Below, in pieces: positions 4,788 to 63,480 of a DNA stretch of 64,000 nucleotides. Position 1 is the stretch's first letter. Each line of letters begins with the position of its first letter. The translations under genes and the position numbers were made by a program. Source of the DNA: a virus (Duplodnaviria; Caudoviricetes); the IMG/VR virus record IMGVR_UViG_3300029705_000055, positions 1 through 64,000 of that record. One strand, 5' to 3'. Below the pieces are notes generated by a model. The model was not told where the DNA came from, did no database searches, and worked only from the letters and a program-made list of their open reading frames with translations.

Positions 4788-5528
4788 TTAATTTTCTACG
4801 TCGCCGCCGCCATTTTGCGTAAAATTCCAAGTTGTTTGTGAGGCACCGCCACTCGAGGAAAAGTAACCATCGGTATCCAACGCGTGTGCCTTATATATAT
4901 CATTATCGCCACCGATAACATCTAGGTTCGCTGCTGTTAAATTCAGATAATAATTACCAACGCTCCCATATATAGCCAATCTTATACATCTTCCCGCACT
5001 AAAAGCATCATAAATTTCTTTCAATGTTTTATCTGCAGTAAAGCCATCTATAAGGGAAGTCTTCTTGGGATTGTCTCGGGTTAAGCTAACAATCAAAGCG
5101 CAACCTGACGCTCCCCCGTCATCATTATCGCCGCCATCTTCGTTACCATCGTCGCTCTTTTCTTGAATAGCACTAACGATATTGTTAATAGCTTGAACAA
5201 TATCTGCAGAAGAAACGCTCTCTGTCTAATTCTGGGCATACTTCTTTAACCATGCTATCAAAGCAGGATTACCGGCATCGGGACCGCCATCAATGCTGAT
5301 GTTTTGATATTCCTCATCAGACCATTCGCCATAAGGATATTCAACGACTTTTATATCATCAAAATACAAAACACCGCTATTCTCCCAGTCTTCGAATGTC
5401 ATCGAGGAAAATTCCTCTTCCCCCACAAAGAAATGAATATTAAATTTATTTATTCCTGTACCAATAACACCGGGTATATCAATGATTTTCCACACGGTGT
5501 TGCTTAAATTTTTAATATTGTTATACAT
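4788..5528 (-). CDS. Virion/tail-associated protein, paralog 1 (code 15, 246 aa)
   Basis: ORFs 5226-5528 and 4788-5096 are joined by in-frame TAG 5226; N-terminal module is nearly identical to the next gene. Confidence 0.75.
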
Positions 5529-5562
5529 TACAACATACCTCCAATCGTGGTAAAATCATTGC

Positions 5563-6267
5563 TTAATTGTGAAGAGTCGGCTTTGCGTCGTCCGAATCGG
5601 CAAGGAACCCCGAGAACTCGCCAGACATACATTCAAAGGCGTACATTACTACATCGGGCGCAGAGCCCCGATAGGCCTCAACAATAGGAATCAACAGGGC
5701 TCGCTCTTCAACCCACTAAACACCATCGTTCTCATATTGTTGTTCGTCGATAGTGGAAAGATATACAGGAGTATCCAGTTTTTTAATTATGTCATACAAT
5801 TCTTTGGCCTCCATATCAATATAAGCATAAGGAGACTCTTCAATTAGTACAACGGGTACAATCCGCACACCGTTACTACCATTGGCGCTACTGTCGCCAC
5901 GAACAGCGCTGGCAACGTTATTTAAAGCGCCAACGATACCCGCGTAAGAAGCACTACCGTTTTGATTCTTGGCATATTTTTGAAGCCAGGCGATTAGAGC
6001 AGGATTTTCTGCGTCGAGACCCCCGTCGATAGATATATTTTGATATTTTTCATCTGTCCATTCACCGACGGGATACTCGACTATTTTTGTGCTATCAAAA
6101 TACAACGCCCCATTATCTCCCTGATCTTCAAATTTCATAGACGAAAATTCTTCTTCGCCCACAAAGAAATGAATATCAAATATATTGGTGCCCGTACCGA
6201 TTACCCCAGGGACATCTACAATCCTCCATGCGGTGTTGCTAAGATTTTTTAAACCTTGACCACGCAT
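5563..6267 (-). CDS. Virion/tail-associated protein, paralog 2 (code 15, 234 aa)
   Basis: Reads through TAG 5716 to TAA 5563. Confidence 0.75.
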
Positions 6268-6298
6268 AACATTAACATCTCCTTATTATTTTATTAAA

Positions 6299-8494: not shown

Positions 8495-9070
8495 TTAATT
8501 TGGTTCACCAATGTTTATATTTTTTTCCGAAAACCAGTTTATTATAAATTTGATCATTTCTTTAGTAGAAACTCCCCAATCGCTCAAAGCCTTCGGCACT
8601 TTAATCATCGGTTTTAAACAAACTTTTTGTATAAGGTCAAAATTTTGCGTAGTTGATACTAAAATTACAATATTGCACCAGCGCCAATCGGGAGGAAGGT
8701 TCTACGCCGCACCGCTTGCCACCTTAAAACCGTCAATTAACAAATCGTTTCCTTCTACCCACGCGTTAAGATTTTTGTTCTTAAAATAGATACACAAATC
8801 ATCTATAAATTCTGTAGATAAAAATTCAGGAAAACGATCATGGGAATAAATATAATTCAATGCTAAACTACCAGCCGCATGGACTATTGTTCCCCCCGGT
8901 CCCTTCCTATTATAGCAAGGAATATTATTATCTATACAATATTGTATATTGCACTCCTCTTCAGAGCCATAAGTAACTTCGTCTTGGTGTAAAATCGCGA
9001 ACCTTAGATGTTCGTGTTGGTCAGCCCTGAATTCGTCGATATGGTCCAAAAAATCCTAATTTGCATTCAT
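8495..9070 (-). CDS. Lipoate-protein ligase (LplA/LipB/BPL superfamily)-like protein (code 15, 191 aa)
   Basis: RKGPGGTIVH, GNDLLIDGFKVASGAA-Q; two TAGs; ATGA-coupled to the upstream gene. Confidence 0.7.
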
Positions 9071-10182
9071 GATTCCCAATCACTCCCATCAATATGATAT
9101 ACATTAACAGTGGTATACTATCCCGCTTTTGCTAGAGCCGCGTTTTTAATTGCTGTGTTGTCGGTATAAATCTTATATGCCGCTGAATTCTTAGCCCCAC
9201 CTTGGGAGGGGGTAAAGGTTGTTGCTACATTTGCCACGTCAAACTGTGGCGTATCTTCGTCCGTAAAAAGATAACAAACGGAAATTTGACTGTTTCCCTC
9301 AGCCTTAAATGCATTAGTTCCCAAAGAAGTAAGATTGGGACCCAAAACCAACCGGGGCGAGAAACAGTCACTAAAAGCCCTAAATCCCCCTTCTCCGATC
9401 GAAGTAACATGCGTTAAATCCCAATCAACCTCAGGAAGCGTGCTGTGCTAAAAAGCCTGGTCAAAAGCATGGGCGGCGATATTCGCTGGAATGTAAACTT
9501 GAGGGGCTTCTTCATACTAATTATATACAAAAGAAGCAAAATATCCGTATTCTGGTACTTCTGTAAAAGGACACCTAGGTGTATAAATAAAATACCCCCC
9601 AGAGCCCTACACCATCAGTGTGTTGCCTCCCATAAATAATGAAGCACACCCCCTCGTAGTTAAAGAGGGATGTCCGCCCGCAGAGACGGTCTAATAATCA
9701 AATAAATTTTCGGCATTCCCTTCGCAGCGAACGGGGAAAGTGGTACTATCTCCAATGGACAGCTGTGTATAAAACATTGCCGCGAGCGCCGCCGCCGAAG
9801 TGCGAAAATGTGTATTTCCAGTTCCACGAAGATAAAGACAGTATTCACCGTCAACAGGAGCCGCCGTCACTTGCGTAGAATCATCACCAAGAAATGTTGA
9901 CCAGTGCTCGGTGTCAGTAGAATATTCTACAGTACCATCCCACTCCGCAGCCCCCTACTTCCTAAGAATAAAAGAATAGGGGCTACTAAGAGTTAGATAT
10001 GGCTTTTCTTCCTCGTACCCATAAACTATTTTATGATCATATTTTATATATGTATCTCCACATTTAAATCTTGGAAATGTTTTTTCATTAGATTTAAAAT
10101 CAATTGCAAAGGCACGTAAATTATCTAAAGAGGGATCAGAATAAAACGTCCATTTTGTATTGGATAAATCTTGTACACTCAT
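9067..10182 (-). CDS. Tail-associated protein with BspA-like leucine-rich repeats (code 15, 371 aa)
   Basis: Six in-frame TAGs; GNAENLFDY-Q-TV, VTSIGEGGF, LTSLGTNAF; ends at TGA 9067. Confidence 0.7.
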
Positions 10183-10199
10183 AACGTTCTCCCTCCGTT

Positions 10200-11326: not shown

Positions 11327-12595
11327 TTAATATGTAAATGGTAAATTATTTAAGTTTGTAAAACTAATATTCATACGCCCCGTAAAATCTAGAGAACAGG
11401 AGACCGATTGAATAAGAAATTTTTCACAAGTAAGCTCAAAAAATTTATCAGAAATTGCTATAATGTTGTTGACTTCTAACAACGGATTGAAAAACACCTC
11501 TGTGCTGGTCGAGCTCTTTAAAATTAATTGCTTTCTTAGCTCATAATCAGCACGTTCTTGTGCCAGGCTCGTTGTATAAATATTACTATCGTTAATAATA
11601 TTACCAGTTCGATATCCTATTCTTTTCCAACAAAGGGGCGACGCGGGATCATCGTTAGAAGCGACCGCCGAAAGTGCGCCTCCGCCAACACCAGTTCCCA
11701 CCACAACAATCCTGTTGATGATTTGGTTGTAATCAAATGTAAAACTCATGGAAGACACATCACCATCTAAATCGGTCGGACCGACCTCTCTTACTTGCGT
11801 GTCAAAAGAATAGAGCAACGGTTTGTCTTTGTCCAAAGTGACTTCGTTAATTGGCGCTATGACAAGTTTTCCGCAGCTGTTATAAAATATCTCAGCCGAT
11901 AATTGAGTGGCTAAGTCTGTAAGAATGGATCCAAGTGTGTCCCCGGCATTTTTACTAATGCGAACTTGTGTTTTTTTACCTGTAAAAATATTTGGATATA
12001 TAAAATCTTGGGGATCTAAAACGCATCCATTGCCCATATCTGTGCGTAAAATGTCGCGAATAATAGTATAAATATCTATCCCATAATCAATAATATATGT
12101 AGACCACAGACGTCCGGTAGCACCATCAAACAATTCGAACTTATCTCCCGCTTGTACAGAAACCTCGCGCATCAATGCAGTTTCTGAAGGAGTAACAGAA
12201 TTAATCACGAAAGTGCCCTTCCGAAACCAATAAGTTTTCCCGGTGCTTATTTTTACACCCAAATCGAAACGCAGGCGGGTGCCCGCCCAAAAAGTATTTA
12301 TATCGGGGGTATAGCGTCCGTCATAATTATATAGAGTGAAAGAAAGAGTCCTTCTTTGCCCGTTTTGATAGTTTTCATTATAACTACCACCCAGCTTTAT
12401 ATCATGAGACGGAATTTCATATGCAATTGTTTCGTCTGCATATAATACAAAAATTCTAAAGCACGATTGTACATAATTTAAGTTAATTTCTCTGCGCAGC
12501 AATTCAAAATCGACGTCTCCGTCTACATAGCCGTAATCTTCAGAAGCGTCGACAGACAAAACCTCCCCACTCGCAAGGTTATAATAAGAGCTCAC
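11327..12595 (-). CDS. Baseplate hub/tail tip protein
   Basis: GTG start after AGGAGGGG; RRTLSFTL...INRIVVVG...LAQERADYEL...PLLEVNNII hub-like pattern; no TAG. Confidence 0.65.
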   Translation of the reverse strand: MSSYYNLASGEVLSVDASEDYGYVDGDVDFELLRREINLNYVQSCFRIFVLYADETIAYEIPSHDIKLGGSYNENYQNGQRRTLSFTLYNYDGRYTPDINTFWAGTRLRFDLGVKISTGKTYWFRKGTFVINSVTPSETALMREVSVQAGDKFELFDGATGRLWSTYIIDYGIDIYTIIRDILRTDMGNGCVLDPQDFIYPNIFTGKKTQVRISKNAGDTLGSILTDLATQLSAEIFYNSCGKLVIAPINEVTLDKDKPLLYSFDTQVREVGPTDLDGDVSSMSFTFDYNQIINRIVVVGTGVGGGALSAVASNDDPASPLCWKRIGYRTGNIINDSNIYTTSLAQERADYELRKQLILKSSTSTEVFFNPLLEVNNIIAISDKFFELTCEKFLIQSVSCSLDFTGRMNISFTNLNNLPFTY

Positions 12596-12611
12596 TTTTC
12601 CCCCTCCTTTT

Positions 12612-12670
12612 TTGTTTATTTTGCACAACCCCGCGATTTCTCGCGGGGTTGTTTTTGTATATTTTGACGA
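12612..12670. promoter_or_regulatory. Paired palindromic box with enclosed GC hairpin, copy B
   Basis: TTGTTTATTTTGCACAA (12612) and TTGTATATTTTGACGA (12655) flank ACAACCCCGCGA-GAAA-TCGCGGGGTTGT (minus strand). Confidence 0.65.
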
Positions 12671-20132: not shown

Positions 20133-23100
20133 TTACGTAAGATTTTTAGTTAAAGCGACTCTCGCTTTTATGGACTTAACAAATGCATCAGCATCAAACG
20201 AACTATCTGCAGACACATTCATAGTAAGATTGTTAATGTTGAAAGATTCATCACAGAGAGGTGCAGATCCAGACACACCATTACGCAGAGATATACCGCC
20301 CTCGACAGCCCTAAGGAGATTGGGAGCTATTTCTCCCAACGCCCAGAGATTCGAGGTGATATCCGCAGGGAGGATGCCGGAGTGTGCGGGGAGCGCGGTG
20401 AGCGTTCCCGAAGGAGTAATAATTGCTTCTGTACCAAATTCATTAAGAAGCGCAGTAGCGCCTGCAAAATTGGTTGTTCCCAAAGCGTTCCGAACGAGAG
20501 GGACTTCGGGCTTACCCCAGAACGGAGAAGGAGAAGAAAAAATGGTATTGATTCCCATTTCGTTACCCCAAACTACACTTGACTAAGAACTTCCCTCTGA
20601 GCTTTTGCTGAGTGCATAGAAAGCTCCGTCGTGGTAAAGGGCGCTCCGACCATCCCCATGCTAGAACAAAAGATCTTCGACCCCTCGCTCTTGCAAAAAG
20701 GCGGCGAGATCTTCCGCCGACTCATATAAACCTATATCCTCGCCATAGGCTTTGCTTATAAATTGAGCGAAAGAACCGCCCCAAGTGCCTGCTTTTGCAT
20801 CAGACCAATTGCCCGATTTTTTATTTCTGGGGTCTTGCATAAACCTAATGTTTTTGTCGGGGTCAAGAATTTCGCTTACAATACTCTTTTGCGCAGAACT
20901 ATAATCTGTAACATAGCTTTGGCTACCCGAGGGGGTATTAACCGAATAAGAATATTTAGGAGTGTACATATCCTAAGTGGCAGCCTTTAACGCCTCAAGA
21001 GAATTAACTCCCGTTCCAGCACTTTGGTGGAAATCAGAGCCAATATATCCTTTGCTTTCTGCGATCGAATAAATTCTTTGATACTTTTCGAGCGCAGAGT
21101 TTAATTCAGAGGCCGTCTTATTTTTACCCAATAGTTTTGTATAGTCTTTCCAGGCATTAGTTAAATCTGCTAAAGTCTGTTCTCTATCTTCCAGAGAGGC
21201 TTCAACCACCTACTCACTGATCTTATCAACACCAACTTCAATACCATCCAGCAAAAAGACAGCCTAGGATAGCAAACTAGCTGCGGTGCCGCCGCCATCT
21301 GTAAGTGTGTTATTAAAATCTTCTGAGAAGCCTTCCACGATTGCCTACACGGCGCCGCGGCCATTTGATGAAAACTCACCAAAGAAAACTTCTGTTAGTT
21401 CTTGCTTTTGTTCTTCGGTGCGAACATCCCACAAGGTTTTCCATTTATCGGCAATGTATGCAATCGCAGAAATCTATTTGTCAATTTTAGAAATTTGTTT
21501 TTCTACAGACAGGTCTTCAATTTCCTTTTGGGCTTCTGCGATCTTATTTTGATCGGCTTCGTATACCCAGCCAACCCCTGCACGGTAAATGCGTCGCTTA
21601 TCGTTCATTGCCTCTTCTAATCTGACGCGCGCCTTTAAAAGCTTCAGCTCATATTCACGTTGCTTATTAATATTTTCTAACATATTGCGCTGCTCAGTTA
21701 AAGCGTCAACCTGTTTCTGGTAAGCGCTGGCAATAAACTCAGTGGCGTTTTTCAACTATTCGCGGTACAAATCTGCGACTAAAGTATCGCCACTAGCATG
21801 CTAAAACGCCTCAATAAGAACTTTATTAATTTCTTTAGAAGTGTCTGTCCCCATTAAATATTTCAGCAAGCTCGCCATTGTTGTTGCCCCCGACTGCTGA
21901 AGCGCATTATCAATATCTGCGTCTGTGAGTTCGGTTTTTTGCATTTTTCTCAAACTGGCAACATAGGAAAAAATACCCGGTTTAAACACTTTGTCGTAAT
22001 GGTCACCGCTTGCCGCATATTGATTCCATTGCTCCTTGAGTTCTTGGTTATTAAGCTGCCTAAGTTGCGTCATGATTTCCTACATGACGCGCGGTGTGTC
22101 GGACATATAAGCAATAAGATCAGGATATTGTTGAACAATTTTATTCATCCAGCCAGAAATGCTTTCCGTACTCGAGGCCATGGTATTTAATAACGAAGAG
22201 AAGGCGCTCGTAGAATCAATTAATTCTTGGGTGCTCTTTAATAAATCTGCCAGGGTTAATTCTCCAAGCTTATCAATAAACTAGGGTAGATTACTTACGG
22301 TTGTTCCAATGGCAGAAGCAAAACTCTCCAGAATTTTTTTATCAAACTAATCCTTTGGATTTAGTTTTTCTAACGCCTCTTTAAGTTTATATGCTTCACC
22401 GCTAAGCACCGCTGCAATTTCCTCATCGGTCTTAAGTACGCGCTCTGCGTATTTCAAGAACCCTTCACTTAAATCACCATTTTCATATCTCATTGAATAT
22501 CCCGCAAGACCGCCGGATTTCTCAACTTCTTCGGCGAGCGTACGATAAATTTTACCTACACCCAGACGTTTTAATTCAACGACATTTAAATCTGTTAAAT
22601 AAGCATTGCGCCCAGCGGACATTGTTTGGGCTGTCAAGAGAGCCTCTTCAACCAACATTTTGTTGTCTTCATCGCGAAGCGTCCACATATATTGCTGGTA
22701 ATCTTTGAGGGCTCTAGCCATTTCCTCCGTAGCCGCTAACTGCTATTGCGCGTCCTCTCGAGCCTAATCGTTACCTGTTTCAATAATTCTTTTCATGAGC
22801 TCGGCTTGTTCAGATAAAATAGTCAATTTATCCGAGACCAGGGATCTCTCCCACTCCTAAGCTCTCTGTTGTTTATAGTTATTTGTTATAGCAGAACCAA
22901 CAGCCGACCCAGCACCAAAACCAGCAACCAGGCTGCCGCCCAACAAGGCACCCCCGATAAGCTTTCCAAGGAGCCCCGGCCACGCCGCTAATAATATTGC
23001 TCCGGTAGTTGCTAACGCCCCCGCGGTCCCTATACCAGCAGCTGTACCGCCGCCCCAGGCCATTGCAGATTCTCGGTTGGTTATACCCAAATCGGTAAAC

Positions 23101-26100
23101 CCATCCAAAGCGGAATTATATTTTAACTAGGCGTTTCCAACTTTTTGCTCTTGATTATAAATATCTTCTGTCCGAGCAATTTTTTCTTGTTGATGCAACG
23201 CTTTAACTTGCGCAATCTCTAGTTTACGGGCTGCCTCTCTGCGTCCTTCTCCAACCTCATTTTTAAACGACTAAACAAGTTTATAGAGGTCATCGTCACC
23301 GTTGTTAATTTTACCCAATTCTTCTTTGAAAACTTTTCTAGTAGAATCATTTTCAGATTTATAAATATCGGACAAAAATTCATCAGCCAACGCATCTGCT
23401 CGACGAATATCATCAATACTTTTAAGAGTGGATAAACTTTTAATTTCCGAGACCTAAGAGCTGATATGCTCTAAAACATTAGTGGTTTCCTGTGCGTCAG
23501 CAGAAAGATTATGGATGTCATCTCGTATTTTATCAATGGACCGCGCAACCCAGTTGCCGACAAGGTCGCCCAAGAACCCACCGATAAAAGGTATCGCGGC
23601 ACTCAGAGCCGCGTCTACACTTCGAGAAACACTTTTGGCCTCTTCGGAAGACGTAACAGTATTTCCCCTTGAGTCGGTATGTGTTTGTCCACCCGTCATA
23701 TAGGCAGAGGCCCCCGCCATAGTTTGGTTAATGGCCATAGTAGCCAGCAACGCGCCCTTGGATGCCCACAAAGATCCGCCAGAAGCCCCTTCGCCGCCTT
23801 GCTGTTTAAGGGCCAGCTGTTTCTCTTCCTCTTGGGTTTCTTGCGCGCCTAGCCGTGCAGTGTTTTCTTTGTGCTGTTCTTCCAGAACGCTGTCAAACGT
23901 TATTTGTTCGCCGGTTTCTTCCATGGCGGCCTGAGTTTCTTGAGCGGACTTTGCTGTATTTTCTGCTGCTTTTTCAAACTCTTTGGCAGATTTAAACACG
24001 CGCTCCCCTCTGGCAGCCACATAGGCGTCGGTCGCGTCGCGACGCTTATCGCCAATAAAGAAACTTCTCAGACTCCGAAGTCTGCCTTTTTCCTCAAGCC
24101 CTTTCAATCCCTTTTGGAGCCAGGATTGCCCAGAGAGTGCCCTATAATTACTCATTCCAGCGATCAGACCGGGCATCCACTTAAGAATCTTAGGAAGAGC
24201 ATCGACAATTTCCGCAAGAAGATTAATCCCTTCGGTTAACAATCCAGCCACGCCGCTGTTACTAGCAATGTTTTCAACCGCCGCAGTAAGCCGCTTTTGT
24301 GCCGCTTGATATGATTCTTGGTATGCGGTATATTTTGTCTCGGCTGTGCCGCGAGAGTTACGAGACACCTCAAGAAGCTCCTCGTACTTTGTCCAGTTAG
24401 ACAAAAGTGTAACAACGCTTTCCTGCTGCCTAATACCCGCAAGTGCGGTCGCAATAGCTTTCTTGGAAACATTGTCGAGAGCGTCCCATTTTTCAGCCAC
24501 TTCTGCTAAGACTTCATCGAAATCTTTGAAAGTTAAGCTCGAACTACGAATTGAAATCCCTATTTTATTCAGAACTTTTTCAACATCGTTTACCGCATCG
24601 CCCTCTTCAGCAGAAGCGAGATTCATTTTATTATACGCGCCAGCTTTAACATTACCATAACGAGAAATAATCGTCTTCATACTGGTACCAACTTGCGTAC
24701 CAGAAGCTTGCGTAACGTCAGCAATGGTTGCAACATATGCAGCCGCCTGGTCCATATCAACACCAGCCAAGCTACCGATGTTTGCGAACTAAGCAAGACC
24801 CTCGGCAATATCACCGGCAGAAGTTGCTGCTTTAAGGTCAATTGCAGTCAGCTTATCCACGATATCCATAGATTCGGACGCCTGCATTTTGAATCCCTTT
24901 AACGCACTCGTTACTTTTGTATTTAATAAGGGTCGCTACTCCTTATTGTGCAAAGCACCTCGCGCTTTCGCGTGAGAATTGACTATATCATCATCCCAAA
25001 ATTAACACCGGGATGTCACTTGCTTCCATCTCGCTCGAGATGTACTCCATAAAGGATAGTCGATGGGGCTGGGTCTTATAAAGACCCCTGCCTGCTGATT
25101 GCCCAATCCCCGTTACTTTACTTCTGACTACACCTCGCGGTGTCAGTTAGCGAACGAGGCTCTAAGGGGTTCCCAGCATATCAAGTGATTTATTTTTCTA
25201 TATATTACTATATAGCGGACCTAATTTGTTAAGTCCTTGGTTGCCGCAGTGGCGTCTATCATACCTAACTTACTCAGATACAAGGAGGCCGTAACCAGGT
25301 CTTGAATCTGGGCAGTTTGGTAGCCCTGCCTTTGCCATTCGAGTGCAGAAGCCGAAACTTCTTGCGTTGTCGCGCCAATCTTTTGACCCAAGTTCGAATA
25401 CTCGGTCATTAATCTGCGCGTATCTTCTTTAGTACCGTTGGTAACAATACGCAAATTCGTTAAAGTACCATCAAGGGCTTTTGCGTTTTGTACTAATAAT
25501 TTAATACCTTGACGCAGCTTCGCCATAATATTCATTGCGGCACGGCCAACAACAAATCGAGAGAAATAATTAGAGAACTATCCAGAGATATCGCCCAACA
25601 AACCGCCATCAGCCGTCTGCGCCTTTTCGGCGCGCTCGCGAACCCGCGTATCAAGACGCGCGCGTCTTTGCCCCGTGGCTAAATATCCACCCGCGCCCGT
25701 CCAATTGGGATCGTTTTTATGCGCTTCTGCTAAAAGATCAACCGTTTCTTGCGCAATGTTACGCAACTCTTCAAGATCTGCTTTTTCTTGCTCAAGGATA
25801 TCTCGTTTATCTTGGTTTGTTTCTTTTACAAGCGCCGCATCGACCGAATTAATACGAGACTCATATCCATATAAATCTTTATATGCAGAGTACGCGCTCT
25901 GTCTATCACTACGTATACGCTTATATTCGTCGATTTTTGCTCGTCTTCCAGCAAGCGCACCCTCAACCACTAAACGATCACTAACGGTGCTGCCTTCTTT
26001 TTCGAGCTTCGAAATCAACGTGTCCATATCCGCGCTAGTAGCGGTTGCATCGGTCTCTCTAATCAGTTGTAATAATTTCGAAAGCCGCTTTTCAATATGC

Positions 26101-40673: not shown

Positions 40674-41690
40674 TCATTCTCCTTTCACATCGTCTGAACT
40701 TTGAGTTTTGAAGTTCATAAAGAACTCCCCAAGAATTTCTTCCGGGGGAATGTCTGAATATATTTTAATCATATCTGAGTTGGCCCAGCCAAAAATCTGT
40801 GTAATTACATCATCGGGCAACTTCTTGCGTTTTAACATGGTGCAAAAGAAGTGTCTGCTCGAGTGCGTGTAATAATCGATTTTAAAAATTTTTGATATAC
40901 GCAGAGCAAAATTATTAGCGGTCGATATTGTTGCGGGGTAATATTCGCCCTTCGATTTTGTAACGAAGAGAGCGTCCTCGGTAATACCGAGTTTCTTGCG
41001 TTCAGCAAGCCACGCATCCAAAAACGGCTAAAACAGCTCTTTGATAACATACTTTTTAATAAGCTTCCCTTGCTTACCCGCACCTTTAGCGCGAACCTCG
41101 GGGGTACAATACATATACCCGTTAAAGACCTCGCGCTCCGGGGTAAAGAAACTTACTTTCATTTGTAATAATTCTGCTTTGCGACTACCAGAAGCGCAGG
41201 CTAAAGCAAGATAGCAGGCCAACTGGTATTCTTTACGATCTAAAAGTCCCTATAACATTTCTTTCATACGCTCGTCTGCAATTACGGTCTTTTCACGAAC
41301 CGGAGCAATTTTAACAGCCTCAAGCGCACGAAGCTGATTGTGAAACTTAGGATAAAGATCCTCATAAAGCAGCTCAATCTCAGAGGATAAGCTGCTTAAG
41401 GCAGACTTAAGGGTGGAAATTCGGTTCGCACTCATACCGAGATCACGACACCACCCAAAATAATAAACAAAGTCTCTGCGTTTTAAATCAATAAAAAATT
41501 TATTCTCGTTTTCTTTGTAATTCCAGCAAAAAAACACTTTGAGCCACTCTTCATACTGGCTGATAGTTTGGGGGGACTTGTCATTGGATTTGCAATATTG
41601 GATAAAATCCTTAACGAGCCGCTTGTTCTCAGAAGACACGTTTTCCCAATCGCTGGTTAAATTTGTATTATAAACTGTAGTACGACTCAT
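40674..41690 (-). CDS. Tyrosine recombinase (XerC/integrase family), code 15, 338 aa
   Basis: SGSRKAE (R), AKG (K), HSSRH (HxxR), FGW, IKIY (Y); TAGs at 41250 and 41028. Confidence 0.9.
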
Positions 41691-47100: not shown

Positions 47101-49894
47101 GTAAAATCTTCAATGTGTGCTTTTTTGTATCAATAGTTCCAAGCGCTATGAGGGCTTGTTGTCCATCTCGTGTCTCTTGACGCACACACCAACCAACAGA
47201 ATAGGTCATCGATACGTTTTTCCCAGCATAAGAAGATTGGTTAAAAGTACCCCAAATACGATAGTTCGCGGTATCATCTTGTTGGAATATTAACTCAACA
47301 GAATCATCGGTCGAATATTTACGACCCGTATTTATATATGCAGTGCCATCGCTATGGATATACTCTAATTGAGTATAGCCACTGGGCAACGTAACTGTAT
47401 TTGGATACAAAGGACGCTCAACGAAGGTTTTAGTACCATCAATAGATTGGTCAGTGTCTGTCAAGACCACTTTACTCCACTCAGTTGTGGTAGGTAATTT
47501 ATAACCACTATCAATACCGATAGTAGTATTTAATGTCGAAGTTTGAGCCGTGCTTTGAGATGAAGTAAGGCCCGTTCCAGCCTGTACTTGGACACTGGTA
47601 ACCGTTCCCGCATTCGGAGTTGTCCAAGAAGCACCACCAGAACCATCAGCAGTTAAGACTTTCCCAGAAGATGCAGTACCAGAACTTATGCCTGATGTGG
47701 TGACGGAACCCCAAGCAGGGACATATCCATCAGATATTAAAACCTGACCCGCTGTGCCAATTCCGAGACGCATTGGGTTGCCACCAGCATCACCGTGGAT
47801 AATATCGCCAAGCGTGGTCATACCTATGTCGGCTTTTACACCAGCAGCATGACCAGATATATTACTCCACGAAACGGAGTTTGCACTACCTGAAGTTGTT
47901 GCATAGGGGATTGTCACCCAAGTCGTTCCGGAACCGCTTCCACCAGCCGTTAAACCAAGTTTGTTAGCGTTGTCACCAGTTCCACTAACTGTCAGCGAAT
48001 AAGTGGTGTTAGTATCTGTAGCGGCGATAGTAATTTTACGATTTGATGTATCATCAGTAAGGGTAATATTACTACCAGCCTCTAATGTTAAATCAGAAGT
48101 AGAGGTACCTGACCCAGAACCACCCGCTGTTAGAGTTGATGTGAATTTATGACTGGCAAGTGCACCGCTCAATGCGTATGTGGTATTGGTATCGGTAGGT
48201 GTATCCCAGGTACCGTCTTTCTTCAAATAAGTTGAACCGCTGGACGAGATTCCTATATCTGTTTTAACACCGTCCGCATGTCCTGATACATTAGCCCAAG
48301 CCACAGAATTTGCTACATCAGCAGTGCTTGCCGTAGTTGCGCTGCCTGCGGTTGTTGCAGAATTAGCGGTGTTGGCAGAGGTGGCATACGGAATAGTGTA
48401 CCAAACCGTGCCTGACCCAGAACCACCTGCTACAAGACCTACCTTGTTAGCATTATCGCCCGTACCACTTACATTCAATGTATACGTGGTGTTAGTATCA
48501 ACTGGTATGGTCGGTTTATCGTTTAAGTCATTATAACTGCCTGTTTTTGATACTTTGTGCAGAGTAATGTTATTGCTAAAAGACTCGGAAGCAGAAGTTG
48601 TCTGCGCTGTTGTAGCAGTTGTATCAAGAGTGCCAACCGTGGCAGGGGTAGCAGGAGTAGCCCAGTAAGGTATACTCCCGTCTGAGGTTAAAACCTGCCC
48701 GCTTGTGCCAATGGATAATTTAATTGGGTCAGCGCCCGCATCTCCATAAATCATGTCACCCAATGCCGTCATCGGGTTCGCCATTCCGCTATCAGCAGGG
48801 TTGGTCCAAATACGGATTGCGCCATCTTTATGGTAATAAACAGGATGATTTAAAAGAATTTCAAACGCTGTCGCGCTAACCGCTCGACCAAGAAAAATGT
48901 AAATTTTACCGTCGTCAGTACTAGGAAGCGCCTGCACATAAGGGGTGTTGGCATCAATAATAGCAGAGCCATTAGATTGAGGCGTACATTTAATATAGAT
49001 AGGTCGGTTTGCGGTCATTGTAGCCGCTGCACCAGTGTTATTAAACGAGTAGCCAATTAAAGTATATGTATCATAATATTGTTGCCACAGTTGAGCCGCT
49101 GTAACATTGGCGTTAGCTTCTATCACCGTTGTTGTGCCGTACCAAGTAATTTCCCCGAATGGGTCAATGGGGCGCTGGTTAACATTCCGCGCCGAAGTAG
49201 CATTAGTAGAAGTACTCGTGTTGGCGGGTACCCATTGTGTACCATCAGCAGAGGTAAACAACAGTCTATAGCGATAAAATTTATCAGATGCCTTCAAAGT
49301 TGAGTTATTAGTTCTCACCTGATAACCAATTGTGTTTGTGTTGGCATCATAACCACGATAACAAATCCAACATCCACCGCTTACACGTGTCGAGTTATAT
49401 GTAAACAGCATCGCATAGTTGATGTTAAAGATTGTTGTATCTCGTGTCGGGTCTGTAGGAGTTACGGGATTGCCCAGCGCCATGTTTGAATATGAGGGCT
49501 TTGCACCTAACCCATTTACATTAATAGTGAACCCAGAAGCCGATGTTACTTTACCATTATACAGCAAAAGAGTTAACCCATCATAATATTCGGTTGCCGT
49601 TAGTTCGGGAATTGTTACCGTAAAGTTTGTTGAGGTAGATGTGCTGTCTACTTGAGCGTAAAAAATTCCTTGCGTTTTTTCGGGAATATTCGCTCCCCAT
49701 TGTGGGGCGCCATTCGACGATTTTAATATCTACCCATCTGTACCAGCGGCAAGGGTAGTCAACGCACCGCCCGTGCCACCATAAATAAGATCCCCAGCAG
49801 AAGTTGTTGGGAACCCAGTAACTTTATCTATACTAGTTTGGGGGTATAAAATGTCCCCGGACGAGGTTTTTAATTGACCTTTAAAAGTGCTCAC
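44111..49894 (-). CDS. Long mosaic tail fibre (code 15, 1927 aa)
   Basis: GTG start after AAGGAGGGGG; single TAG at 49730; repeated GDxIxG...GQVL...PxW and GIDSGYKLPTTTEW modules. Confidence 0.85.
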
Positions 49895-53576: not shown

Positions 53577-54620
53577 TTACGCACCGATTTCGACTTCTTC
53601 AGAAACAGCTGCGGTGCCCTTCAGACGGAAAATATAGTTCGTGCTAGAAACAAACACATACTCCGCAGTAAGATCGGTCCAGTTTTCACCGTCGTCGGTA
53701 GTGTATTCAATACCATCGGCAGCGGTGAGGGCTTTGAGGTGACCGTCTTTCAGCTCAGCATAGATCGAAGGATGATCGCCAGCTTCAGCAGACTCGGCAT
53801 CAACAATCAGAGACGCCACGTCTTCTTTCCAGCTACGATTATCTATAACTTCAATAATGCGGAGGAGCTTACCGCCGTTGACTTCGCAGTCAGCCGATTC
53901 AGAAGCAAGCGCAACACCAGAGAGCGACATCGTCTGGTTGGAGCTCATGTTCATGGTAAATTCCTGAGAACCATTGAGCAGGAATCTGGGAACTTCAAAA
54001 GTAATGTGACCAGCGGCTTTGCCCTTAGAAGCGGCGCAAGCATCACCGGCATAAATGGGGGCGGTGATGATAAGGAAGAGTTCTTCCGGAATTATCGTCG
54101 AGGTAATTTCGGCGGCCTTGGCATTAGAAACAGGACCAAGGTAGCGAATGCAGTATGCACCCGAAGCGCCGGTAAGAGAAAGCTGTTTGGAAGTGGCATC
54201 ATAATCGATTTTCTGCCATTCATCCATACCCTTCTTAGTACCCCAAACAAGATAGTCCTCTCCGCAAGGAAGCGGCATCTTATTGATGGTCTTGTTATAA
54301 GAAGCGACACCATCAGTAAATTCAACTTCATCACTTACATAATCTTCATCGCCGGTGGTGAAGCGAGCGCCGAGCTGAGCCTCCAGATATTCAGGCTTCC
54401 AAAGAACGTCGGTAAGGGTTATATCGACATTAGAATCGTGGTAGAAGCTGAACTGAACAGGAGCACCTTCGCCAGCGCGAATATCATCTTTGGTCGTAGT
54501 AATATTCAGACCGGAGTCAGTAAGGGTCTTGGAAACAAAAGCCACGGTTCTTTCGCCAGTGGCGGCGTCATAACGGAAGGCTTCTGCTTTACCAACAGAA
54601 CCTAAAAAGTACTTTGCCAT
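53577..54620 (-). CDS. Major tail (tube) protein
   Basis: Position after neck genes; acidic, beta-rich, FEVPRFLLNGSQEFTM; no TAG. Confidence 0.7.
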   Translation of the reverse strand: MAKYFLGSVGKAEAFRYDAATGERTVAFVSKTLTDSGLNITTTKDDIRAGEGAPVQFSFYHDSNVDITLTDVLWKPEYLEAQLGARFTTGDEDYVSDEVEFTDGVASYNKTINKMPLPCGEDYLVWGTKKGMDEWQKIDYDATSKQLSLTGASGAYCIRYLGPVSNAKAAEITSTIIPEELFLIITAPIYAGDACAASKGKAAGHITFEVPRFLLNGSQEFTMNMSSNQTMSLSGVALASESADCEVNGGKLLRIIEVIDNRSWKEDVASLIVDAESAEAGDHPSIYAELKDGHLKALTAADGIEYTTDDGENWTDLTAEYVFVSSTNYIFRLKGTAAVSEEVEIGA

Positions 54621-58729: not shown

Positions 58730-59386
58730 TTACATTTCGGTCGGTTGAATTTTATAACGGCCACTCAGCTCGTCTTGCTCTCTTTTGAAGCCGCCTTTGG
58801 TTAATCTGTCTAAAAGATCAACTTTTTCGCGATCTAAGAAAGCCGGATCGCCCTCTACAAACTTACGTTTATAGTAGCATACAACACTTTCTTTGAGGTT
58901 TTGAAGCTTCAGACCGCTCCAAAGATGTTCCAAGTCACGGGCCGACATCTTACCGATTGCATACAAAGTAGCGACATCGAGACCGAGTTCTTTATCGGTA
59001 AAAACACCTTTTGCGGAAGCAACATCCGCATTTTTATAAGAAACAGCAAAAACACCGCGATCAAACCAAGAACGATATTTACCAACCAGCTCATCAAATT
59101 GCGAACGAGTCATAACGAACTCTTCCCCATATCTGGTGCAGTTAATTTCCATGTTGCTAATTTTGGCATACCCAAGACTGTCAGAACAGTATACCAGCGT
59201 TACATCTGTAGACGGAGTGGCGGGCGCTGCAACAACGGTTGTTTTTGCGGGTTCCGCAGCAGCTGCGGTCGCTTTTTCGAGCAGGGCTTGAAGCTCCGCT
59301 ATCTTTGCCTCAAGATCAGCTTTGGTCGGCCCCTTGCTCGAAGGTGCTTTAGTGGTGTTTTTATTTGTAGTTTTATTGGTAGCCAT
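58730..59386 (-). CDS. Hypothetical protein downstream of the capsid gene
   Basis: AAAGGAG RBS, 218 aa. Confidence 0.8.
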   Translation of the reverse strand: MATNKTTNKNTTKAPSSKGPTKADLEAKIAELQALLEKATAAAAEPAKTTVVAAPATPSTDVTLVYCSDSLGYAKISNMEINCTRYGEEFVMTRSQFDELVGKYRSWFDRGVFAVSYKNADVASAKGVFTDKELGLDVATLYAIGKMSARDLEHLWSGLKLQNLKESVVCYYKRKFVEGDPAFLDREKVDLLDRLTKGGFKREQDELSGRYKIQPTEM

Positions 59387-59469: not shown

Positions 59470-60555
59470 TTACAGAGCAATAGTACCGTACTTGGAACCA
59501 ACCACAGCAGACACGCCGACTCTTAATTCGACAGAGATGCCATAACGTTTGTCAGAAGTGGATTCGGGGTTGAACGAAACAGAAATTTCGTCGCCTTCGA
59601 AAACTATCTTAACAGGACGAACGCCGCCGACAGGAATCATGTAAATTCTATTGTCGGGAAGAGCGAGGGTGGCAGTGCTATTGGTAGTGCCGGGGATAAG
59701 AACATTGTTAAGACCAACAAGGGGAACACCAAGATACTGATCAAGGTATCCAACTTTGTTCATCTCTTCGCCTATCTGGACCTGGAAGTTGCCCTGCAGC
59801 GAAACATTGCTGAGAGCCACAGCGGTACCGATAGCAATAACGTTCATGCCGCCATTGGCAGCAGAAACTCTTTCTCTAAGGGTGCCCCAAAGAGTCGGAG
59901 TTACGCCATTGGTGGTATAAGCAGCACCGAAATCGGTGGTAGCCTGAGTCATGCCTTTAACGGCTTTAAGGAAGATGTAAGCCATGAACGAACGGCCGAT
60001 CTTAAGAGCGAAGTTGCCCATATCGAACACGCCCGCCACGAACGGATACCAGTCAATGCAAGCGTCCACGGTAAGGGGAGCAGCATTGACGGTGATTTCG
60101 TCATCGAACATCGGCTGATCAACGCCCTTGCGAACGCCTTCAGCTTTAGAGTTAACTCTGAAAAGATCATTCGATTCAATTATGAAACGAGCGGTCTCGC
60201 CGTAGCCAACTTGATGAACATCGGCAATGAACTTAGAGAAAGTATCGTTAACCACTTCGGGAACGATAGCATTGATAACCTGTGCGATCACCGCATTGAA
60301 GTTATCGCGAACGGTGCTGTTGTTTTTAACCATAGGACGGTTGTAAACAGCAAGGCCTTCAGCTTCGAAAGCAGCCTCATAACGGGTGCCTTCAACGCCT
60401 TTCTTACCCATAGCGTAAAGCAGGTCTTTGTTGCGAGCTTCATAATCAGCAGGTTTTCTGCCTTCGTAGCAGGCTCTCGCAAGGTCAAGGGTGCAATCAA
60501 CGAGCGAGTTGAAGGACTCGTCCGTGGATTTCGTATAAGCAAAATATTTTTCCAT
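59470..60555 (-). CDS. Major capsid protein
   Basis: 361 aa after protease/scaffold and decoration-like genes; strongly biased codons; no TAG. Confidence 0.75.
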   Translation of the reverse strand: MEKYFAYTKSTDESFNSLVDCTLDLARACYEGRKPADYEARNKDLLYAMGKKGVEGTRYEAAFEAEGLAVYNRPMVKNNSTVRDNFNAVIAQVINAIVPEVVNDTFSKFIADVHQVGYGETARFIIESNDLFRVNSKAEGVRKGVDQPMFDDEITVNAAPLTVDACIDWYPFVAGVFDMGNFALKIGRSFMAYIFLKAVKGMTQATTDFGAAYTTNGVTPTLWGTLRERVSAANGGMNVIAIGTAVALSNVSLQGNFQVQIGEEMNKVGYLDQYLGVPLVGLNNVLIPGTTNSTATLALPDNRIYMIPVGGVRPVKIVFEGDEISVSFNPESTSDKRYGISVELRVGVSAVVGSKYGTIAL

Positions 60556-60580: not shown

Positions 60581-61126
60581 TTAGAGCTGAACGACTTCAA
60601 CGAGGTAGATGGAACCGTTAGATTTCATACCAGTCGTGAGGTCTTCTTTAATAAGAACTTTAACGGCAAAGCCAGAACCAGGAAGAGAAGCAGCTGCTTT
60701 GTGAGTGAATTCACCAGCTTCAGCAGTAGCAAACTTACCAACAGTGGGTTCGGTATCGAAGTTGTCTTCGCCTATCCAGTATTTGTCGTGAAGAGCAAGT
60801 CTACGAGCTCTAGCTATGGTACCAGCAGGAACCTTCAGACCATAGAGCTTGTTGCCCATTTTGTAAACATTATCGGCAATAGCGCCTTCAGAAATGCCAG
60901 CGTAGTCAACAATGACAACTTCATCGGTAGCAGCCGCGGGGGCAGCAACGATATAAGTGTCATATTCAAGACCGTCCAGACCAGCAGGATCATAAACGGT
61001 GTTAGGAGCAAGATCGCCACAGACGACGAGAGCGCCATCGGGGAGTTCTACGTCAGCAACAACGTTAGTCAGGTAAGAATCGGCAACGCCACTAAGCATC
61101 TTACCTCTTTTAAAAACATTAGCCAT
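60581..61126 (-). CDS. Putative capsid decoration/head protein
   Basis: 181 aa, immediately upstream of the capsid gene; no TAG. Confidence 0.6.
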   Translation of the reverse strand: MANVFKRGKMLSGVADSYLTNVVADVELPDGALVVCGDLAPNTVYDPAGLDGLEYDTYIVAAPAAATDEVVIVDYAGISEGAIADNVYKMGNKLYGLKVPAGTIARARRLALHDKYWIGEDNFDTEPTVGKFATAEAGEFTHKAAASLPGSGFAVKVLIKEDLTTGMKSNGSIYLVEVVQL

Positions 61127-61244
61127 AGTTTAATTCTCCTTTTAAATGTAAATTAATTTTTGGTTTAACGTATATATAAAACTAGATCTATCGCAGGATC
61201 GACTTCGGCGATATCGATAGAGCGACGTCTCTGTCTTAACAAGG

Positions 61245-63032
61245 TTATCTATTTGCGTAATCACGCAGGCGATCCCAAGAGCTAGCAGAGGCTTTCTTGG
61301 AATCTTCTTTTTTGGAAAAGACGGAATTGGTGTCGGGGGTTGAGATTGGTGCGCTAAATGACATTTCAGAAGCACCGTCTGTCTCTTCCTCCTGGACTTG
61401 TTCGGGCGCGGTAGCCATGTTTTGCTCAAGAAGCGCCATAGCAACCTTTACGCGCAAATCATCAAGAGAATTAATTTCTCCGCTTTCGCACCTTTGAGTA
61501 AATTCAGTTGCACTTTCAGAAGATATTTTCGACGAAGCAATTAACTTCTTGGCAGAGGCCACAAATTCCGCATGCTCAAATTTTGCAATTATTTCAGAAG
61601 CAGACTGAAGTTCGTTTTCAATTACGGCCTTTTCACCCTCGAGCTTCTCGTAAGCTTTTATAAGAGCATAGTGATCCGGATACTGCTGCAGCTTACTTTC
61701 ATAGGCAAGCTTTTCATCATCAACCTAACCCTCCGCGATAACAGCAGCAAGATTAGTTAAGTCTGCAAGGATACCGCGCACAGAATTAAGCGAACGACTT
61801 AATACATTAATAATATATTCACGATTCTCAATCTCTTCCGGCGCATTCTGGTAATATTCTAAGCATTCCGCGATATCACCGTCTTGCCAGTCAAAAGAAG
61901 ATATGAGCCAAGCTACATCTCTCATCGGAGCGTGCTCACATTCTTCACACTCTTCACAAGAATTTTCTTCACGTATGGTCTCTTTTTCCTCGCAAGGCTC
62001 TGCGTCTATAGCTTCGTGTCTACCGCCGCACTCAACGGCTTTTTCTTCGCATTCGCAAGGAGCTTTACCGCAATCAGGGCAAACCTCTTCACATTTTCCT
62101 CCACACTCGTCGGTTCTTTCTTCGCCGCAGGCTTCCTCTGCTTCCACGGCAGCGCCGCATTCACAAGAAGCGCCCTCGGTCTCAGAACAAGTGTCCTCGA
62201 AATTCTCCGTAGAAGAATCAGAGGTTTCAGAGATGGAGGTATCCGTCACAACTTCTTCAGTTGCAACGTTTTGTTCAAATTCCTCTGTGGAATTAAGAAC
62301 TTCTTCCATATTTTTCTCCTTCTTAACTTCGGTAGAGTTATCGAGTTTTTCATAAGCCAAACGCAAGGCCTGGACTTGCCTATCGTAAAGCTCTCTGCCC
62401 ATTACATCCACTACCGACAATTCTGCATTTTCTATTCCAGGCTCAACTTTTATACCGTTCCTGGAACCTAAAATTGTAACACCAATAAGCTCAAACTCAT
62501 TGATTTTCATTACACCGTTTTCAAGCATTTCATAATCGAGTATATCTACCTCAACAGAAATGTTTTTTGCGGGGCCGCCATTTTTCTTTGCACGGCGAGC
62601 ATCTTTAATTAATCTTTTTACTTGCTTAAAATTATACTGAGACCAGAGCGCGCATGTAAAGGTAATCCAATATAAACCATCGGATCCCTGTATAATTTTA
62701 CGCTCGTCAGATTCACGAATGATCCCAAGTATTCTCTCACCTTCGGTGTCCCAGGTATCAAAATAGGGAAGGTCTGTTTCGCCGTCTACCTTCCACTCCC
62801 CATTATGGGAAACGAAGTCGCCCTGTTTGAAATATCCCAAAATAGGCTTATTAACAAAAGTACCAATGGATCTTTCCATAGACTCTTTTGTAAACCAGGA
62901 ACCGTTTCGGTTGGGGTTGGCGCTGCTAATAGCGCGCATTTGCAATTCAAGAAAATCTTTTTTTAATAATTGAGTGACGCTGATTTGGTCGGCGTCAACT
63001 TCCAGAAAAAGTCTGGTATTATTATTTGCCAC
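61245..63032 (-). CDS. Putative prohead protease-scaffold protein (code 15, 595 aa)
   Basis: NRNGSWF...KPILG...SVEV...GVTILG N-domain, acidic/Cys-rich linker, coiled-coil C-terminus; TAG 61725. Confidence 0.7.
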
Positions 63033-63480
63033 TACCTTCAGTGCCCCCCTTTTGTTTTAAAAATTGTTCTTTGGTCGGCAGAGCATCAAACCGGGACATA
63101 ATATCGGACACGAAAGAGTTGCCGTTTAATTCATCATAGGAATCATATAAATCGTGCAAATTCTCGTAATCATAGTCATTTCTGTACCCCTTACCGAGAC
63201 AATCATAGTAACAACGTAAAATATCGTTACGCAGCGTCGATAATGTGCCATTGCCAATTTTTTCCAAACGATCGTTAATATAATCCATTTTGTCACATAT
63301 CGGTTTGACCTCTTCGGCAATAATATTACGAATCTACTCTGCAGACTCTTTTTGTTTCAGTTCTTTCACATGCTGGCTGTTCGCAACTTTTTTATCATGA
63401 AGATCTTTCCAAACGAGACTACTTACTGTTGAAAGGCTGAGAACAGACACAACTAAAGATACAATCTAAAGCCATTCCAT
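63022..63480 (-). CDS. Membrane-anchored phage protein, holin-like (code 15, 152 aa)
   Basis: MEWL-Q-IVSLVVSVLSL transmembrane segment; LR..IL..Y...G....EN...LY..Y..L.GN; two TAGs. Confidence 0.65.

Follow-up and report, generated by a model that had tools for sequence, protein, structure and literature searches.

UAG very probably serves as a glutamine codon in the late genes of this phage, in the manner of genetic code 15, judging from the sequence of a block that carries head and other virion genes, tail and fibre genes, the giant RNA-polymerase-like/tape-measure gene, nrdD/nrdG and a recombinase. This is the reading given in the preliminary description, and it is supported by glutamine opposite the TAG sites in a relative that uses the standard code, by coding density and by a tRNA gene with a CUA anticodon. 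The reassignment is not genome-wide. It covers the late block at approximately 3.5–72 kb and two genes of the replication block. Recoding of this type in gut phages, which the preliminary description had given as known, is well documented (Borges 2021, bioRxiv 10.1101/2021.08.26.457843; Peters 2022, PMC9523058; Babkin 2023, PMC10607447); the phenomenon, the amino acid and the proposed role are all in print, and the present phage is a clear but ordinary example.

The window, which is the whole 64,000-nucleotide stretch of DNA analysed, covers the first 64 kb of a phage genome that is complete, at 133,443 bp (CheckV completeness 96%), and whose termini overlap by 144 bp with identity at 143 of the 144 positions. 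The phage comes from animal gut samples and recurs across 17 studies of faeces and bovine gut, in a total of 24 sequencing runs, indicating that it is not an assembly artefact; no RNA run was among the sequencing runs listed for it. Its GC content is 43%, which is not low, and the genome holds four tRNA genes, one of them a suppressor.

Gene structure and coding density with TAG as a sense codon

4788–63480, minus strand: TAG-recoded late-gene block within the limits of the preliminary description, from the map of open reading frames with TAG as sense

The recoded minus-strand block in fact extends from about 3.5 to about 71.7 kb, beyond the end of the window. Once TAG is treated as a sense codon, this block closes up into a dense array of genes. 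Between 4788 and 63480 it holds 40 genes, 29 of which contain in-frame TAG, with a total of 103 TAGs, a few of these falling upstream of a likely start or within a group I intron; TAG makes up 15% of the glutamine codons in this interval. Over the block at 3.4–72.1 kb, coverage rose from 0.837 to 0.971 and the mean ORF length from 178 to 429 aa, and coverage of the whole genome rose from 0.872 to 0.943. Peters et al. regard a gain in coding density of more than 5% as a sign of recoding in contigs of at least 100 kb, and the gain found here lies above that value for the genome and for the late block. The coding score of the late block increased from 3988 to 4605 while that of the 72–111 kb region stayed flat (1475 vs 1474). 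The comparison of tables 11 and 15 that had been proposed as a check thus favours code 15.

Opening TAG produced ORFs of 2182, 1934, 1878 and 1622 aa, whereas opening TGA as sense neither lengthened the ORFs nor increased the coverage. Because the absence of in-frame TAA and TGA follows from how the gene models were built, it is this comparison of TGA with TAG that provides independent support, and it bears out the earlier observation that all gene breaks are in-frame TAG. The rebuilt genes had also been said to end in TAA or TGA, often with ATGA or TAATG coupling. They do end in this way (32 in TAA and 8 in TGA), but by construction of the model, and the coupled junctions exist, although "often" was an overstatement, with 5 ATGA, 3 TAATG and 1 TGATG among the 50 genes of the block.

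Distribution of TAG across the genome

In-frame TAG occurs in 34 of the 50 block genes versus 2 of the 31 genes in the replication region (111–133 kb plus the first 3.4 kb), with no gain in coding score at 72–111 kb, which is the concentration in late and structural genes seen in phages with code-15-type recoding. The genes for DNA polymerase, a DnaB-like helicase and exonuclease V are TAG-free; the two recoded genes of the replication block are an exonuclease at 127,155–128,168, with four TAGs, and one further gene. NrdD/NrdG and a recombinase are recoded though they are not classical late genes. The partition of TAG between late and replication genes is therefore not clean. Within the middle region, only about 5 of 55 ORFs terminate in TAG. 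TAG-containing ORFs at 72–111 kb were dropped as evidence for recoding, as they had no PHROG match and negative coding scores and most look spurious; one of them, at 88,932–90,152, is clearly a shadow, lying antisense to a TAG-free plus-strand gene.

TAG use also differs among the virion genes. The presumed high-copy genes, namely the major-capsid candidate at 59470–60555 and the genes at 53577–54620 and 11327–12628, are TAG-free, as is the endolysin, whereas the presumed low-copy giant proteins carry 13–20 TAGs each.

Glutamine at the TAG sites

The amino acid was inferred by DNA-level tblastn against G001, a syntenic relative that uses the standard code and shares 50–80% protein identity with the phage. 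Glutamine stands opposite 27 of the 55 aligned TAG sites (49%), compared with a background glutamine frequency of 3.4% (binomial p ~5e-25), and ordinary CAA/CAG glutamines are conserved in the same relative at 52%. The log-likelihoods were -116 for Gln, -167 for Lys and -178 for Glu, placing Gln about 50 units ahead of Lys, the next candidate. Gln stayed ahead when NrdD was left out (-111 vs -150) and when the genes of the window were taken alone (Gln at 11 of 27 sites, p 3e-10; -62 vs -81 for Lys). The codon opposite the glutamine-matched TAG sites is CAA in 23 of 27 cases and CAG in 4, but as G001 scarcely uses CAG anywhere, these counts give no clear signal on CAG as the precursor codon. 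The preliminary description had staked its reading on glutamine enrichment at the TAG columns, and that enrichment was found by this codon inference.

Individual TAG sites were then compared with protein families, structures and internal repeats.

37793–39676, minus strand: NrdD, anaerobic ribonucleotide reductase; Pfam PF13597 aligned over residues 65–625 in one stretch across the TAGs
39065–39067, minus strand: TAG in the Q-S-P-[FY]-T-N motif of NrdD
27843–27845, minus strand: TAG in an L-Y-Q-x-G-I-N column of the giant RNA-polymerase-like protein
5226–5228, minus strand: TAG aligned with a CAA (Gln) codon of the tandem paralogue at 5563–6267
49730–49732, minus strand: TAG in the Gln slot of the internal G-Q-[VI]-L repeat of a 1927-aa fibre-like protein
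8702–8704, minus strand: TAG in a gene with an LplA-like catalytic domain (Pfam PF21948 over residues 19–145)
28266–28268, minus strand: TAG in the RNA-polymerase-like protein, 36 codons upstream of a DFDGD motif

NrdD contains five TAGs, at 39545, 39089, 39065, 38951 and 38636. Among 120 homologues, glutamine occupies four of the TAG columns in 116, 120, 119 and 120 sequences, and the fifth column is split between 40 Gln and 71 Ser. In the Thermotoga maritima structure (PDB 4coi), three of the five sites are Gln, among them the motif at 39065, where the structure reads QSPYTN and where all 120 homologues have Gln, in line with the earlier assignment of this TAG to the QSPFTN motif. Close relatives have NrdD proteins that are 78–94% identical. 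In the RNA-polymerase-like protein, the TAG at 27843 falls in a column that is invariantly Gln in 10 of 10 homologues. The two alignments drawn up earlier within the window itself also held. Against its paralogue (BLASTP E 1e-60), the gene with TAG 5226 has glutamine at the TAG and 55% identity that persists past it, and TAG 49730 lies in one G-X-I-L copy that faces three G-Q-V-L copies in the same protein.

Two motif assignments of the preliminary description failed in the closest homologues. TAG 8702 had been read as the glutamine of an LplA-type motif, but 15 homologues show N, I, V, H, A, D or T there and none has Gln. The column is variable, yet conservation resumes beyond the TAG in these homologues, indicating that it is read through; LplA structures in the PDB align only as far as the TAG. 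TAG 28266 had been taken for the glutamine of a β'-type xQA motif, whereas that column holds G, S, L, M or N, and never Gln, in the ten homologues of the family.

The most TAG-dense reading frame is that of the RNA-polymerase-like protein and the tape measure.

20133–24953, minus strand: tape-measure ORF, 1606 aa, matching PHROG tape-measure families (E 1e-35)
25143–31691, minus strand: RNA-polymerase-like giant ORF with about 13 coding TAGs

The tape-measure ORF is the most TAG-dense gene with 20 TAGs, only one of which aligned to G001, with Gln there. Together, the RNA-polymerase/tape-measure reading frame holds about 33 TAGs. A group I intron contains TAG 25221 and the TGA "stop" at 25143 of the RNA-polymerase-like ORF. 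The giant gene had no match among GenBank phages by megablast, the RNA-polymerase-like core had none in the PDB by sequence search, and searches for related loci with the 2182-aa and 383-aa proteins gave no match.

The tRNA with anticodon CUA and the decoding machinery

Genome positions 110,262–110,335 (outside the window), minus strand: tRNA with anticodon CUA, 74 nt, recognised by its cloverleaf

The search of the rest of the genome for a tRNA-CUA, proposed in the preliminary description, found one. It lies on the same strand as, and downstream of, the TAG-free replication genes at 111–133 kb. The cloverleaf is normal, with U1 unpaired against C72, G73, G10 and a C3-G70 pair. G73, G10 and a U1 that pairs weakly or not at all with position 72 are identity elements of glutaminyl-tRNA synthetase, and the features of the tRNA are consistent with a putative glutamine isotype. 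ARAGORN labels the tRNA "Pyl", solely from the CUA anticodon. A scan of bacterial genomes for the acceptor stem returned mostly tRNA-Met(CAT), with 9 Cys and 2 Gln; among the bacterial tRNAs sharing this stem, only two tRNA-Gln(CUG) also have U1, G73 and the first nine bases. Taken as a whole, the body is more often similar to elongator Met-type acceptor stems than to Gln, in a similarity ranking that is crude and biased by the choice of set. A pattern scan with the anticodon arm gave 40 chance matches and one tRNA-Gln(UUG). No homologue of the tRNA was found in GenBank phages or in five relatives, where only the T-arm matched.

The same search covered the decoding proteins. RF-1, PCRF and class Ic synthetase domains are all absent from the genome, at 96% completeness, which thus encodes neither a release factor nor a glutaminyl-tRNA synthetase, nor a Glu-tRNA synthetase. 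No factor that would remove release factor 1 was found in the genome either.

Comparison with known recoded phages and suppressors

In crAss-like phages, peptides prove that TAG is translated as Gln (Peters et al.). The present phage resembles the TAG-to-Gln gut phages (crAss-like, Lak, Garnet and Amethyst among others) in having TAG in structural and late genes and replication genes compatible with the standard code, and it shares with those of Borges et al. an encoded suppressor tRNA(CUA), a close standard-code relative and a gut habitat. It differs in its tape measure, in its giant RNA-polymerase-like protein, in a TerL whose closest matches are terminases of Bacillus siphophages, in the recoding of NrdD/NrdG, a recombinase and an exonuclease, in lacking release factor 2 and in its GC content. 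Its TAG-free endolysin contrasts with the lysis-gene bias reported by Borges et al.

A further likeness in print is phAss-1, a 136-kb phage with TAG in 41 ORFs and suppressor tRNAs but no synthetase (Babkin 2023). Like phAss-1 and the proposed Phassvirus group, the present phage is of siphovirus type, comes from the gut and measures about 135 kb; it has TAG in about 40 ORFs, those for TerL, portal, tape measure and fibre among them, and a suppressor tRNA-CUA without a dedicated synthetase; NrdG is also recoded in some members of that group. In contrast, phAss-1 has 36 tRNA genes, three of them suppressors. Membership of Phassvirus was examined through similarity to OQ749652, BK046881 or BK025033, in a collection that may lack these records, and through a complement of about 30 tRNA genes, and was not supported, as the giant gene has no megablast match among GenBank phages and the genome only 4 tRNA genes. 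By tblastn against GenBank phages, TerL matched only Bacillus and Microcystis phages at 26–36% identity, so no close kinship to phAss-1 is shown. Crassvirales, which are podoviruses with no tape measure and with crAss-type TerL and major capsid proteins, were rejected, given the tape-measure PHROG match and the siphophage-like TerL.

The cellular counterpart is E. coli supE (tRNA-Gln, CUA), which likewise competes with release factor 1 to place Gln at UAG and shares G73, G10 and U1 with a 1-72 pair that is weak or missing. However, supE is a weak suppressor of rare nonsense mutations, whereas the phage tRNA has over 130 sense UAGs to decode. Nor can the body of the phage tRNA, which has C3-G70 and another D-arm, be recognised as a derivative of tRNA-Gln.

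Proposed mechanism and alternative explanations

Following the late-gene model of Borges et al., recoding would act as a translational timing lock on the late genes. The host would have the standard code, and because the early and replication genes are nearly without TAG, they would be translated normally after infection. The phage tRNA(CUA) would be made next and charged with Gln by host enzymes, and it would then outcompete host release factor 1, full-length late proteins becoming possible only at that stage. A difficulty for this scheme is that the RNA-polymerase/tape-measure frame, with about 33 TAGs, calls for nearly complete suppression.

A leakier scheme, in which UAG is read as Gln only part of the time against host release factor 1 and TAG density sets protein yield rather than on/off timing, seems to us improbable. 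It would fit the lack of an encoded release factor 2, release-factor-1 inhibitor or synthetase, and the absence of TAG from presumed high-copy virion genes when the low-copy giants have so many. However, the frame of about 33 TAGs would give almost no full-length product unless each TAG were read at well over 90%, and the share of TAG among the glutamine codons of the block suggests little selective cost. A further possibility is that one tRNA alone, with a body not obviously that of a tRNA-Gln, alters the meaning of UAG, with TAG use graded by protein copy number (0 in the capsid, tail-tube-like and endolysin genes; 13–20 in the giant low-copy proteins) and with the most TAG-dense frame also needing its group I intron spliced; TAG density would then be a tuned device for dosage and timing and not neutral drift, a reading that we consider worth stating though not the likelier one. 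On this reading, efficient read-through would imply that host release factor 1 is silenced in some undiscovered way.

The remaining alternatives are far weaker. It is very unlikely that the host itself reads TAG as Gln and the phage merely matches it. Nothing in the analysis favoured this; against it, a tRNA(CUA) is encoded by the phage, in-frame TAG is avoided in the replication genes and the middle region, about five middle-region ORFs end in TAG, hosts of such phages have the standard code according to Borges et al., and to our knowledge no bacterium uses code 15. Still less plausible is a sense TAG with another residue such as Glu, Lys/pyrrolysine or Ala. The "Pyl" label, the body that is not clearly Gln-like and Lys as the second commonest residue opposite TAG in G001 (7 of 55 sites) could be cited for it, but the log-likelihoods, the near-invariant Gln columns (120/120, 120/120, 119/120 and 10/10) and the normal cloverleaf speak for glutamine. 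G3-U70, the identity pair for alanine, is ruled out by the C3-G70 of the tRNA. The least credible reading, to which we attach hardly any weight, is that the TAGs are true stops, the block then consisting of fragmented pseudogenes or having been broken up by errors in sequencing or assembly. Table 11 does break the block into about 110 short ORFs, 59–71 of them with TAG as the terminator. Yet the interruptions are only TAG, homology, Pfam domains and coding score run on across every one of them, the same sequence recurs in many independent metagenomes, and a matching suppressor tRNA is encoded.

Significance

Glutamine at UAG in the late block thus remains the preferred reading. The phage adds to the TAG-recoded phages a bovine-gut lineage of siphovirus type with a standard-code sister, and it is a clean case of recoding by tRNA alone; it opens no new question. 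Since table 11 shreds more than half of the late genes, code 15 is needed when this lineage is annotated, its proteins are clustered or its host range is studied. In the public protein collection, the window's own proteins are present with Gln at the TAG sites, at least part of it having been translated in this way.

Reading TAG as sense in the late block

When the window is translated with the standard code (table 11), its minus strand appears as a series of short ORFs, the majority of which have TAG as their terminator. When TAG is read as sense, the same strand becomes a compact array that includes ORFs of 2182, 1927, 1862, 1606, and 1019 aa, and reading TGA as sense leaves the ORF picture of this strand unchanged. 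For the block at 3.4–72.1 kb, translating TAG increased the coding coverage from 0.837 to 0.971 and the codon-usage score from 3988 to 4605, and lengthened the average ORF from 178 to 429 aa. At 4788–63480, where the preliminary description had proposed the reassignment of TAG to glutamine (genetic code 15), 29 of the 40 minus-strand genes contain TAG, with 103 TAGs in total, accounting for 15% of the Gln-type codons. The gene coupling it had reported as frequent does exist but "often" was generous, as ATGA, TAATG, or TGATG is found at 9 of 50 junctions.

The following features of the late block are referred to below.

4788–5528 and 5563–6267, minus strand: tandem paralogues with a common N-terminal module of ~120 aa (55% identity, E 1e-60)
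8495–9079, minus strand: LplA/LipB catalytic-domain-only protein of ~190 aa
24959–25240, minus strand: group I intron (Rfam RF00028, 76.4 bits, full-length model)
25143–31691, minus strand: giant RNA-polymerase-like ORF with DFDGD at 28173–28187
37258–39885, minus strand: cluster of NrdD, an NrdG-like gene, and a small CPQC thioredoxin/glutaredoxin-like gene, embedded in the late block

UAG encodes glutamine in the late block

The amino acid was assigned by homologue-based codon inference, which is independent of existing gene calls. An NrdD search returned 16 viral contigs, among them G001 (IMGVR_UViG_3300028048_000063, 150 kb), a relative that is syntenic with the head-to-NrdD region of the window and with the TerL/portal region just past it, with protein identities of 31–80%. 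G001 uses the standard code: its genes are uninterrupted by in-frame stops in table 11, and reading TAG as sense adds no coverage. Its GC content is 33% versus 43% in the phage. At its loci L001, L017, and L018, Gln is nearly always CAA and TAG gene ends are rare (3 of 40).

G001 DNA was translated with the standard code and aligned to the TAG sites of the phage. Gln stands opposite TAG at 27 of 55 aligned sites (49%), and in the same alignments Gln encoded by CAA or CAG faces Gln in 52% of cases; against a background Gln frequency of 3.4%, the binomial p is ~5e-25. With a substitution table derived from these alignments, Gln has a log-likelihood of −116 as the meaning of TAG, ahead of Lys (−167) and Glu (−178), favouring the glutamine of the preliminary description. 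On these likelihoods, the Glu and Ala readings of TAG proposed for some other phages are excluded here. Gln also leads with the window genes alone (11 of 27 sites; −62 versus −81 for Lys) and with NrdD excluded (−111 versus −150 for Lys). In the late block, UAG encodes Gln.

The support from individual sites is stronger still than that from G001. NrdD has five in-gene TAGs (the NrdG-like gene has one), and a single Pfam PF13597 alignment runs over all five. Among 120 uninterrupted homologues, four of these columns hold Gln in 116, 120, 119, and 120 sequences and the fifth holds Gln in 40 and Ser in 71. In the Thermotoga maritima enzyme, for which a structure is solved, three of these five positions are Gln. 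In the giant RNA-polymerase-like protein, the column of TAG 27843 is Gln in all 10 homologues found. Two database matches with Gln at every TAG (P0122 and P0124) were not counted, being the window's own proteins as translated at the source.

Three of the five sites cited earlier for Gln held up: TAG 5226 is aligned with a Gln of the tandem paralogue, with the alignment extending past it, TAG 49730 falls at the Gln position of an internal motif present in four copies, and TAG 39065 lies in the Q-S-P motif of NrdD. The other two were not confirmed as Gln columns. TAG 8702 in the LplA-like gene falls in a variable column with Gln in 0 of 15 homologues, and the column of TAG 28266, 36 codons upstream of the genuine DFDGD motif, holds G, S, L, M, or N in ten family members. 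Even so, conservation picks up again beyond each of these two TAGs, which shows clearly that both are read through.

The C-terminal parts of the tandem paralogues are unrelated. The LplA-like protein belongs to a small family with similar-sized homologues on metagenomic contigs and a conserved lysine motif, K-V-A-S. The R-x-P...DFDGD stretch of the giant ORF resembles the catalytic double-psi barrel of multisubunit RNA polymerases, and the ORF has no sequence match in Pfam, PHROG, or PDB. A search of 1.84 billion representatives found only nine homologues, most of them 3900–4200 aa. The group I intron sits between this ORF and the tape-measure ORF, and contains both TAG 25221 and the apparent TGA terminator of the 2182-aa ORF. 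DNA contigs from two other runs represent intron-less alleles, joining 24899 to 25234 with 16 other letters between. Because the RNA-polymerase-like homologues are ~4000 aa long, this ORF and the tape-measure ORF probably form a single spliced gene.

A phage tRNA with anticodon CUA

According to ARAGORN, the genome carries four tRNA genes. Thr(UGU) lies inside the window; the other three lie outside it and are Gln(UUG), Pro(UGG), and a tRNA with anticodon CUA. This CUA tRNA, at 110,262–110,335 on the minus strand, is the tRNA for which the preliminary description had proposed searching the remaining genome. It is a regular 74-nt cloverleaf with a 7-nt D-loop and a 4-nt variable loop, in which U1 is unpaired against C72, accompanied by G2-C71, C3-G70, G10, and G73. 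The known identity elements of E. coli GlnRS include an unpaired or weak 1-72 pair, G73, G10, and U35. When bacterial genomes were scanned for tRNAs with this acceptor stem, most matches were tRNA-Met(CAT), and the only ones to agree also in U1, G73, and the first nine bases were two tRNA-Gln(CUG). The phage has its own tRNA(CUA) and encodes neither a release factor nor a synthetase; an HMM search of the genome in all six frames gave no RF-1, PCRF, or class Ic synthetase domain, and the positive controls matched.

Extent of recoding and occurrence of the phage

The 133,443-bp record, with the window as its bases 1–64,000, was treated as a complete, circularly assembled phage genome because its last 144 bases repeat the first 144 with one mismatch and its CheckV completeness is 96%. 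Within the window, PHROG and Pfam matches mark a tape measure, tail proteins, an endolysin, NrdD, the LplA-like domain, and a tyrosine recombinase; beyond it they mark TerL, a DNA polymerase, a DnaB-like helicase, and exonuclease V. The recoded block spans ~3.5 kb to ~71.7 kb on the minus strand. Reading TAG as sense brings no gain in the small-gene region at 72–111 kb (score 1475 versus 1474), where only ~5 of 55 ORFs end in TAG. Most apparent TAG-containing ORFs there score as non-coding, and the one at 88,932–90,152 is clearly an antisense shadow of a TAG-free gene. The replication genes at 111–133 kb, with the tRNA cluster at their downstream end, are on the minus strand and lack in-frame TAG except in two genes.

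127,155–128,168 (L022:3155–4168), outside the window, minus strand: exonuclease (phrog_69) with a PHROG alignment spanning four in-frame TAGs
132,371–133,000: second TAG-containing gene of the replication block

The coding score of the recoded exonuclease is on a par with that of its neighbours in this otherwise nearly TAG-free block. Outside the late block, TAG hardly occurs, whether as a sense codon or as a terminator. The genes there are correctly readable under both decoding states.

The phage is a real, recurrent entity. Its DNA or close variants are present in 24 public sequencing runs, which come from 17 studies covering animal faeces and bovine gut, and contigs of 4 of these runs were aligned onto the genome. 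It belongs to the known class of code-15-type recoded gut phages, and is similar to a 136-kb gut phage with suppressor tRNAs and without a synthetase (Babkin et al., PMC10607447). Peptide evidence for TAG recoding comes from crAss-like phages (Peters et al., PMC9523058). The present phage does not belong to the crAss-like group, as it encodes a tape measure and has a TerL whose nearest matches are terminases of Bacillus siphophages. GenBank phage and TerL searches established no link to the Phassvirus group.

A probable staged model and its awkward points

In the most likely mechanism, the host would use the standard code and the TAG-free early and replication genes would be translated first. 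The tRNA(CUA) would build up and be charged with Gln by host enzymes, and full-length late proteins would become possible only after the charged tRNA had accumulated. Borges et al. (bioRxiv 10.1101/2021.08.26.457843) described the same staged late-gene model. Several observations are awkward for it. The endolysin and presumed high-copy virion genes lack TAG, and NrdD, NrdG, the recombinase, and the exonuclease are recoded. The RNA-polymerase-like and tape-measure frame holds ~33 TAGs and therefore demands very efficient suppression, yet nothing that would counter release factor 1 is visible.

40674–41690, minus strand: tyrosine recombinase/integrase-like gene lying mid-way along the late block, with two in-frame TAGs (phrog_1, E 1e-23)

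An 80%-identical copy of this recombinase is present in G001. An integrase that could be made only after the code switch would be unexpected if it served lysogeny.

The following genes in or beside the block are TAG-free.

59470–60555, minus strand
53577–54620, minus strand
11327–12628, minus strand
58730–59386, minus strand
60581–61126, minus strand
3731–4762, minus strand: endolysin

Together they comprise ~3000 codons, in which ~20 TAGs would be expected. Besides the endolysin, their products include the likely major capsid protein, another virion protein, and a tail protein. In some of these genes and a few early genes the Gln codon is almost exclusively CAG, whereas the rest of the block prefers CAA.
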